Assembly (NCBI RefSeq): GCF_003018115.1
Contig: NZ_CP027457.1
DNA: 64,000 bases
From: Escherichia coli
GTDB taxonomy: Bacteria > Pseudomonadota > Gammaproteobacteria > Enterobacterales > Enterobacteriaceae
Reading direction: 5' to 3' (one strand)
Shown: one piece after another, positions 50,326-50,626 of the stretch
Layout: every line of letters begins with the position of its first letter
Position numbering within the stretch: position 1 is the first letter of the stretch
The notes under the pieces: model-generated
Database searches by the model: none
What the model saw: the letters and a program-made list of their open reading frames with translations, nothing else
What the model was told of the DNA's origin: nothing
Position numbers and translations under genes: made by a program

Positions 50326-50626
50326 AGTAGGCCGGATAAGGCGCTCGCGCCGCATCCGGCATGATATAAGGCGCACCGGGTCAACACATATGCCCGATGC
50401 GCAAGCTTATCGGGCCTACAGAGAGGGAAAGCTGCGTTTATTTGCGTTGGCAGACACCTGTAGGCCGGATAAGGCGCTCGCGCCGCATCCGGCATGATAT
50501 AAGGCGCATCGGGTTAACACATATGCCCGATGCGCCATCTTATCGGGTCTTCAGGGAAAGCCGCGATTACTTGCGTTGGCAGATACCAGTAGGCCGGATA
50601 AGGCGTTTTACGCCGCATCCGGCAAG
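50326..50626. repeat. tandem REP/BIME array (two full ~125-bp units plus a partial)
   Basis: gtaggccggataaggcgctcgcgccgcatccggcatgatataaggcgca(c/t)cgggt(c/t)aacacatatgcccgatgcgc... recurs in tandem between sslE and pppA. Confidence 0.8.

Follow-up and report, generated by a model that had tools for sequence, protein, structure and literature searches.

The stretch of Escherichia coli DNA analysed here, 64,000 nt in all and referred to below as the window, carries the mucinase gene sslE (yghJ) and pppA in the same orientation, followed by the T2SS-beta genes. The sslE ORF is 1,519-1,525 aa long, and in the 100% identical strain F9792 its product is named lipoprotein metalloprotease SslE. The longest ORF starts sslE at TTG 45745, six codons 5' of the PGAP ATG (MNKKFKYKK..., lipobox LAGC), which is a small artefact. 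Past pppA the T2SS-beta operon is intact (51952-62413), from gspC (319 aa) and gspD (686 aa) through gspM; in K-12 an internal deletion of T2SS-beta leaves only yghF, yghE, and yghD. A tRNA-Phe(GAA) gene, presumably pheV, lies on the minus strand (62562-62637) about 150 nt past the end of gspM, with no island inserted between the two. Elsewhere in the window, Rfam identifies the sRNA C0719 (43296-43517, minus strand, 293 bits) upstream of glcA, and ES173 (1096-1159, minus strand, 99 bits). Between the sslE stop codon TAA (50320-50322) and the pppA ATG (50649) is a gap of 326 nt (50323-50648). The features of this gap and its flanks are as follows.

45763-50322, plus strand: sslE (yghJ) coding sequence, with a PGAP-equivalent start; F9792 annotates a 4560-bp sslE ending at the same stop.
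50327-50361, plus strand: REP copy 1, z type (GCCGGAT), with GTAG at 50327-50330 and a hairpin at 50331-50360 containing the AA/GC bulge (inverted repeat I5; -20.9 kcal/mol).
50362-50390, plus strand: linker 1, copy 1, 29 nt, containing GGCGCACCGGG (alternative hairpin 1; -16.5 kcal/mol).
50391-50419, plus strand: inverted short REP, copy 1, GCCCGAT (y-like), with CTAC at 50416-50419 (inverted repeats I3 and I14; -13.5 kcal/mol).
50420-50459, plus strand: linker 2, copy 1, 40 nt, direct repeat family D2, locus-specific (median of 1 place per genome).
50460-50494, plus strand: REP copy 2, z type, with GTAG at 50460-50463 and a hairpin at 50464-50493 (inverted repeat I6; -20.9 kcal/mol), identical in sequence to copy 1.
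50495-50523, plus strand: linker 1, copy 2, 29 nt, carrying GGCGCATCGGG (50503-50513), with an alternative hairpin of -25.5 kcal/mol.
50524-50552, plus strand: inverted short REP, copy 2, degenerate (CTAC changed to CTTC, GGGCC to GGGTC), with its own hairpin of -10.7 kcal/mol.
50553-50588, plus strand: linker 2, copy 2, 36 nt, direct repeat family D2, 91% identical to copy 1.
50589-50624, plus strand: REP copy 3, z type, with GTAG at 50589-50592 and a hairpin at 50593-50623 whose loop is one T longer (inverted repeat I7; -21.7 kcal/mol).
50625-50648, plus strand: pppA leader, about 24-25 nt, CA-rich and G-poor, nearly invariant across alleles.
50397-50648, plus strand: spurious in-frame extension of pppA, 84 codons, arginine-rich, read through the repeats.
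50649-51458, plus strand: pppA, the T2SS-beta prepilin peptidase, genuine coding sequence of 269 aa (annotation, Pfam, protein collection).

Tandem Repeats Finder reports a single array in the gap, at 50324-50624, with a period of 133, 2.3 copies, 88% matches, and a score of 459. A repeat search likewise returns a direct repeat of 101 nt within the array (92% identity, spacing 133), a further direct repeat of 53 nt (91% identity, spacing 129), and three occurrences of CGCCGCATCCGGCA. Because of its length and identity, the repeat is not a chance match. An earlier note on this DNA had described tandem REP-containing units filling the sslE-pppA spacer, and both methods bear that description out. 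The details shift somewhat: the array had been placed at 50326-50626, slightly off the bounds found here, and the two and a half units of about 125 bp that had been claimed are indeed in tandem but measure 129-133 bp and number 2.3. The note had also suggested folding the repeat units as RNA. They form stable hairpins (about -21 kcal/mol for the z REPs), and the fold of the entire spacer is much more stable than those of shuffled controls (z-score -5.6).

Read along the plus strand, the array is a succession of five REPs, in the order z(+), y-like (inverted), z(+), y-like (inverted), and z(+), with a period of 129-133. The three z copies share one architecture, GTAG followed by a 30-31-nt imperfect palindrome, GCCGGAT-AA-GGCG(loop)CGCC-GC-ATCCGGC, whose arms are 86% complementary in each copy (inverted repeats I5-I7) and whose internal AA/GC bulge is visible in the folds. 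The stem of the first copy begins 8 nt past the sslE stop codon. In the first unit, GGCGCACCGGG of linker 1 is a half-palindrome complementary to the left arm of the REP that follows. In the second unit, GGCGCATCGGG (50503-50513) pairs with 50526-50536 as inverted repeat I12, 11 nt and 100% complementary, and the resulting linker/REP-arm hairpin (-25.5 kcal/mol) is stronger than the degenerate y-like REP's own (-10.7 kcal/mol). Unit 2 thus has a three-arm layout at 50503-50536, with mutually exclusive hairpins. The EC69, E. coli B, and SJC33 alleles share the perfect GGCGCATCGGG pairing; K-12 and unit 1 have mismatches in it.

Beyond the last REP, the pppA leader (50625-50648) contains no Shine-Dalgarno sequence. 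A 60-nt segment at the leader is 27% C and 13% G, and the leader is mostly unpaired in the minimum-free-energy fold, with three pairs only within it. In both the minimum-free-energy and the centroid fold, the entire array is enclosed by a helix of 4-5 bp between AGCAU (50300-50304) and AUGCU (50649-50653), the latter covering the pppA start codon; this helix is rejected because it is too short to be significant, and is probably a chance pairing. Its 5' arm falls within the translated last codons of sslE. In the other sslE variant, AGUAU could still pair with AUGCU through a G-U wobble.

The sslE-pppA spacer is an ordinary BIME, that is, tandem REP palindromes in alternating orientation, here in the form of a two-unit, five-REP allele. 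REPs of E. coli are defined by GTAG and an imperfect palindrome, and multi-copy BIMEs by alternating REPs and inverted REPs with variable linkers and a copy number that varies between strains (PMC3333891); an AA/GC mismatch bulge is conserved in the palindrome of about 29-37 nt (PMC8266576). The GTAG or CTAC of group-2 REPs, those recognised by the REP-associated transposase TnpA-REP, is found at 50327, 50460, and 50589 (GTAG) and at 50416-50419 (CTAC), and the second inverted REP is counted as degenerate because CTTC replaces CTAC. The imperfect palindrome with its AA/GC bulge is present in the z copies. As is usual of REPs, extragenic copies are numerous in each genome, with the spacer query matching a median of 5-6 places per genome, all via the z REP. 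Similarly, REPs and inverted REPs alternate in tandem as in BIME-2 or atypical BIMEs, and copy number is strain-variable, with six spacer lengths among ten genomes. Canonical elements of that class combine y and z2 REPs with an S linker and s, l, or r flanking motifs. At 34-36 nt the z copies are closer to z2 (37 nt) than to z1 (29 nt), a comparison by length alone (lengths from PMC8266576). Their partner REP, GCCCGAT, is neither y (T) nor z (G), having a C at the distinguishing position.

Neighbouring classes fit less well. BIME-1 (RIB/RIP), a single-copy element with a long L linker that includes an IHF site, is argued against because the array contains no match to the IHF consensus WATCAANNNNTTR; the array is also multi-copy. 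Rfam searched at gathering thresholds over the whole window finds nothing in the sslE-pppA spacer. A permissive search returns naRNA4 (RF02564) at 33-37 bits and otherwise noise, and membership of that family is rejected, the best match of 37.4 bits lying below the gathering score of 59.5. Two other REP pairs in the window, at 6872-7010 (plus strand) and about 17983-18059 (minus strand), match naRNA4 at 68.1 and 84.8 bits, above the gathering threshold; they combine canonical GCCTGAT (y) and GCCGGAT (z), unlike the array between sslE and pppA with its GCCCGAT partner. Only that partner REP, the locus-specific linkers, and the competing perfect hairpin in unit 2 are mildly unusual in the sslE-pppA array.

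Copy number and indels are polymorphic at the sslE-pppA locus, and the two-unit allele is one of the states. Spacer lengths are 326 nt in the window, 197 nt in K-12, 163 nt in E. coli B strain ATCC 11303, and 155, 139, and 129 nt in others. In an alignment of nine alleles, K-12 has one unit fewer (z, y-like, z). In the short alleles, linker 2 has additionally lost 11 nt and the terminal REP (REP copy 3) is destroyed by a deletion of 18 nt, and in some of them a 16- or 34-nt deletion takes part or all of the y-like REP; the direct repeat ATCGGG bounds at least one of these y-like REP deletions. Alleles with the other sslE C-terminal variant (...EYSMPAE) have their stop 1-2 nt from the stem and lack GTAG. 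Only the stop-adjacent REP hairpin and the leader of about 25 nt are kept intact in all nine aligned alleles.

The unit minus its z REP is locus-specific, with a median of one matching place in each genome; 1,049 of 5,426 genomes contain at least 80% of it, and unit 1 is matched at 99% identity or more by 108 records. The best 60 matches to the full spacer are all colinear two-unit alleles, and a sample spread over the ranks has a K-12-like record by about rank 136. Taken together, these figures give the two-unit allele a count of at least 60 but below about 136 genomes, or roughly 2% of complete E. coli. Perfect spacer matches include ETEC O169:H41 strains, and the window is accordingly from a non-K-12, probably ETEC-like, E. 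coli. In a scan of one genome per species (query: leader and ATG), the only match was a two-unit allele with few SNPs in Escherichia sp. E1V33. Units 1 and 2 differ by about 10% in the linker-1/REP segment and by 24% in linker 2. This is as large as the divergence of either from the K-12 unit, which argues that the duplication is old and not a product of recent slippage.

The repeats have a further consequence for how pppA is read. The open frame 50397-51458 encodes 353 aa, the first 84 codons of which lie 5' of the ATG at 50649; the earlier note had dismissed these codons as spurious and placed the true start most likely at 50649. Both judgements hold: the 84-codon extension is an artefact, PppA starts at ATG 50649, and the array is untranslated. 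In F9792 the PGAP start of pppA maps to 50649, and pppA is annotated at 810 bp in K-12 MG1655 and seven other strains. When the N-termini are compared across strains, a check that the note had proposed, all annotations inspected use the ATG equivalent to 50649. The Pfam domain positions agree with the annotation of these nine strains. PF06750 (A24_N_bact) occupies 105-202 of the 353-aa ORF, or residues 21-118 of the 269-aa protein, and is matched from profile position 3 of 84 onward; PF01478 (Peptidase_A24) occupies 214-324, or residues 130-240. The 269-aa PppA consequently has both domains of an A24 prepilin peptidase, near its N-terminus, and nothing in Pfam matches the first 84 residues of the 353-aa ORF.

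That the 353-aa ORF might nonetheless be real, with the PppA of this lineage carrying an arginine-rich N-terminal extension, is almost certainly wrong. The frame does stay open for 93 codons 5' of 50649, with ATGs at -84 and -42 codons, and one GenBank record, OSL46728.1, the 311-aa "PppA" of E. coli H605, annotates a comparable 42-aa extension at the same locus. However, the extension is built of repeat sequence, and its length and content shift with copy number; where the upstream frame is open, the "peptide" varies with repeat content. Among the nine alleles from which the upstream frame was extracted, five close it or leave it without a start: a TAA interrupts the frame 4 codons 5' of the pppA ATG in E. 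coli B (ATCC 11303) and in strain C1, and three further alleles have no in-frame start upstream of that ATG. The upstream ATGs at 50397 and 50523 are in or at the edge of hairpin stems, the former, which opens the spurious ORF, within the stem of inverted REP copy 1. Moreover, no domain covers the extension, and a collection of about 15 billion proteins does not contain the exact 353-aa sequence, while the 269-aa PppA appears there on 691 contigs under the name prepilin peptidase PppA. OSL46728.1 therefore indicates that a repeat-derived extension artefact is already in public databases at the sslE-pppA locus. The short minus-strand ORFs inside the array (68, 40, and 41 aa) are repeat translations of a like kind. 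The main value of these observations is an annotation caveat, namely that six-frame or longest-ORF gene calling across REP arrays yields false arginine-rich N-terminal extensions.

Although it is not translated, the array is very likely transcribed. In ETEC, a single polycistronic mRNA running from sslE through gspM, with a promoter upstream of sslE, is described in the passage of PMC5012682 that cites Yang 2007, and in BL21(DE3) sslE, pppA, yghG, and yghF are co-transcribed with the T2S genes (PMC5435950). A scan of 49800-51000 found no sigma-70-like promoter and, on the plus strand, no intrinsic terminator (GC-rich hairpin and U-tract); the sole terminator-like site in this interval lies on the minus strand, and such a count is expected from shuffled sequence too. 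The co-transcription reports and the lack of a promoter and of a plus-strand terminator argue that the array is transcribed inside the operon and provides no insulation of sslE. The suggestion in the earlier note that the array may separate sslE transcriptionally from the genes downstream is thus not upheld as far as insulation goes, whereas expression in K-12 makes it plausible that read-through is partly attenuated or that mRNA stability differs. In the DESeq2 tables of Harris et al., K-12 RNA-seq baseMean values are 1472 for yghJ, 62.4 for pppA, and 5.0 for yghG. Divided by coding length, these become about 323, 77, and 12 per kb, an approximately 4-fold drop from yghJ to pppA in a baseMean taken over mixed samples, with library strandedness unknown and no BIME-deletion comparison. 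The drop across the three-REP allele runs in the expected direction and, as an uncontrolled comparison, is a hint. In the same strain yghE (11129-11989 of the extracted K-12 locus) has a baseMean of 337, about 390 per kb and far above the upstream pppA and yghG, suggesting that the remnant operon contains a promoter, internal or antisense, that is possibly tied to the small opposite-strand gene yqhJ.

Taken as a whole, the locus is best explained, and with good confidence, as a BIME whose array is untranslated and transcribed within the operon, with PppA starting at 50649 and with hairpins that probably favour sslE. By analogy with REP arrays studied elsewhere, the array most likely protects the 3' end of the sslE mRNA and partly attenuates read-through. 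Transcribed within the sslE-pppA-gspS-gspC..M mRNA, the stable hairpins, at about -21 kcal/mol each, would block 3'-to-5' exonucleases, so that an sslE-only product of decay or termination would persist longer than the distal transcript. Attenuation, partial and probably assisted by Rho, would limit read-through into pppA and the gsp genes. Ribosomes terminating on sslE may likewise be slowed, because the first stem lies only 8 nt past the stop codon. On balance, the secreted cargo SslE would be made in excess of the secretion machinery, and extra units would strengthen the bias; an excess of cargo over membrane machinery would fit such polarity.

Each of these steps has a precedent in the literature. 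REP325 is a partly Rho-dependent attenuator and a stabiliser of upstream mRNA, and tandem gene pairs containing REPs generally show upstream-biased expression (bioRxiv 10.64898/2026.03.23.713779). Stem-loops shield the 3' ends of Rho-terminated transcripts (PMC6061677), and terminating ribosomes are reported to stall, with a lower protein yield, at REPs that lie no more than 15 nt from a stop codon (Liang 2015, as summarised in PMC12306157). The same Harris et al. study finds that REP effects are context-dependent and that mRNA half-lives are not uniformly lengthened by REPs (bioRxiv 10.64898/2026.03.23.713779). With regard to Rho, the spacer would be a poor loading site because it is G-rich and strongly structured; C exceeds G only in about the 60 nt after the last REP.

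Counting against the proposed mechanism is the hypervariability of the array, with REPs or linker segments lost in most strains, which is to be expected of tolerated selfish DNA rather than of a tuned regulator. The strongest rival explanation says just this, that the array is selfish or junk DNA spread and rearranged by TnpA-REP and by hairpin slippage, with incidental and unselected effects. It overlaps the best explanation, differing from it only on whether the effect is selected, and has a real, if minority, chance of being correct. The nine alleles differ by deletions within REPs and linkers, several of which have a short direct repeat (ATCGGG, for example) at their ends; CTAC is gone from the second y-like REP, and the terminal REP is destroyed in most alleles. 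Further, TnpA-REP recombines BIMEs in vitro and can add REP copies (PMC3333891). Yet the stop-adjacent REP and the 25-nt leader have survived intact in all alleles, and REPs in tandem gene pairs generally shift expression to the upstream gene.

Two other accounts grant the array a function of a different kind. A full terminator, which would leave sslE transcribed on its own and pppA and the gsp genes dependent on a separate promoter, could draw on the five stable hairpins between the genes and on the drop in expression from yghJ to pppA in K-12. It is highly improbable in the face of the polycistronic sslE..gspM mRNA of ETEC described in that passage of PMC5012682, the co-transcription in BL21(DE3) (PMC5435950), the lack of a plus-strand hairpin with a U-tract and of a sigma-70-like promoter in 49800-51000, and the distance of only 24 nt from the last REP to the ATG. 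Similarly improbable is a role at the level of DNA or the nucleoid, in which the array would be a putative gyrase site relieving supercoiling behind the 4.6-kb sslE, or a source of HU-binding naRNA4-like RNAs. In favour of such a role, multi-copy BIME-2 elements are gyrase targets, as Espeli and Boccard reportedly found in 1997, and the array contains weak naRNA4 matches. Those matches, however, score 33-37 bits, well under the gathering score of 59.5; the array contains no IHF consensus site; and according to Harris et al., REP325 and naRNA4 do not compact the nucleoid (bioRxiv 10.64898/2026.03.23.713779).

The preferred reading of a transcribed BIME that would favour sslE raises a more speculative and, on balance, doubtful prospect, that the number of BIME units is a heritable, strain-specific dial for the ratio of SslE cargo to T2SS-beta machinery. 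If it were so, part of the reported variation in sslE expression among pathotypes might stem from decayed alleles and from those with 0 to 2 units, and the five-REP allele of the ETEC-like lineage would give the strongest sslE bias. The decayed, one-unit, and two-unit alleles form a natural copy-number series in a virulence-associated operon that is usable to test REPs as tunable 3'UTR stabiliser-attenuators. Within the literature collection searched, no paper mentions yghJ together with REP elements. REP arrays, their copy-number variation, their effect on operon polarity, and their tendency to generate false ORFs are all established, so that the finding is of a known kind and the array does not challenge existing knowledge.

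The array can be set beside several known systems. It resembles intra-operon REP stabilisers, in which the presence of REP hairpins in a spacer within an operon goes along with higher upstream expression; those have been tested experimentally, whereas the role proposed at sslE-pppA is reached by comparison with them. The classical examples are said to have been studied on malE-malF, by Newbury in 1987 and by Khemici and Carpousis in 2004. Polarity between aceA and aceK is attributed to a REP. Polarity of the aceBAK operon is noted in PMC5435950. REP325 (yjdM-yjdN), the source of naRNA4 (RF02564), likewise consists of tandem paired REPs flanked by two genes that share an operon and an orientation. 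It differs in having six repeats and shorter linkers, the units in the window reaching only 33-37 bits, and its role is experimental where that of the sslE-pppA array would follow by analogy. The BIME-2 or atypical BIMEs of Gilson, Bachellier, Hofnung, and Ton-Hoang 2012 share with it the alternating tandem copies of REP and inverted REP, the strain-variable number, and the absence of an IHF site; the GCCCGAT sequence of the second REP type and the locus-specific linkers of 29 and 36-40 nt set the window's array apart. Finally, the yghJ(sslE)-pppA BIME of K-12 MG1655 occupies the same locus, with the same flanks, stop-adjacent REP, y-like REP, linkers, and leader, and is about 90% identical to either unit in the window. 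It has one unit and 3 REPs in 197 nt, as against two units and 5 REPs in the window, where the spacer is longer by 129 nt and the second y-like REP is degenerate.
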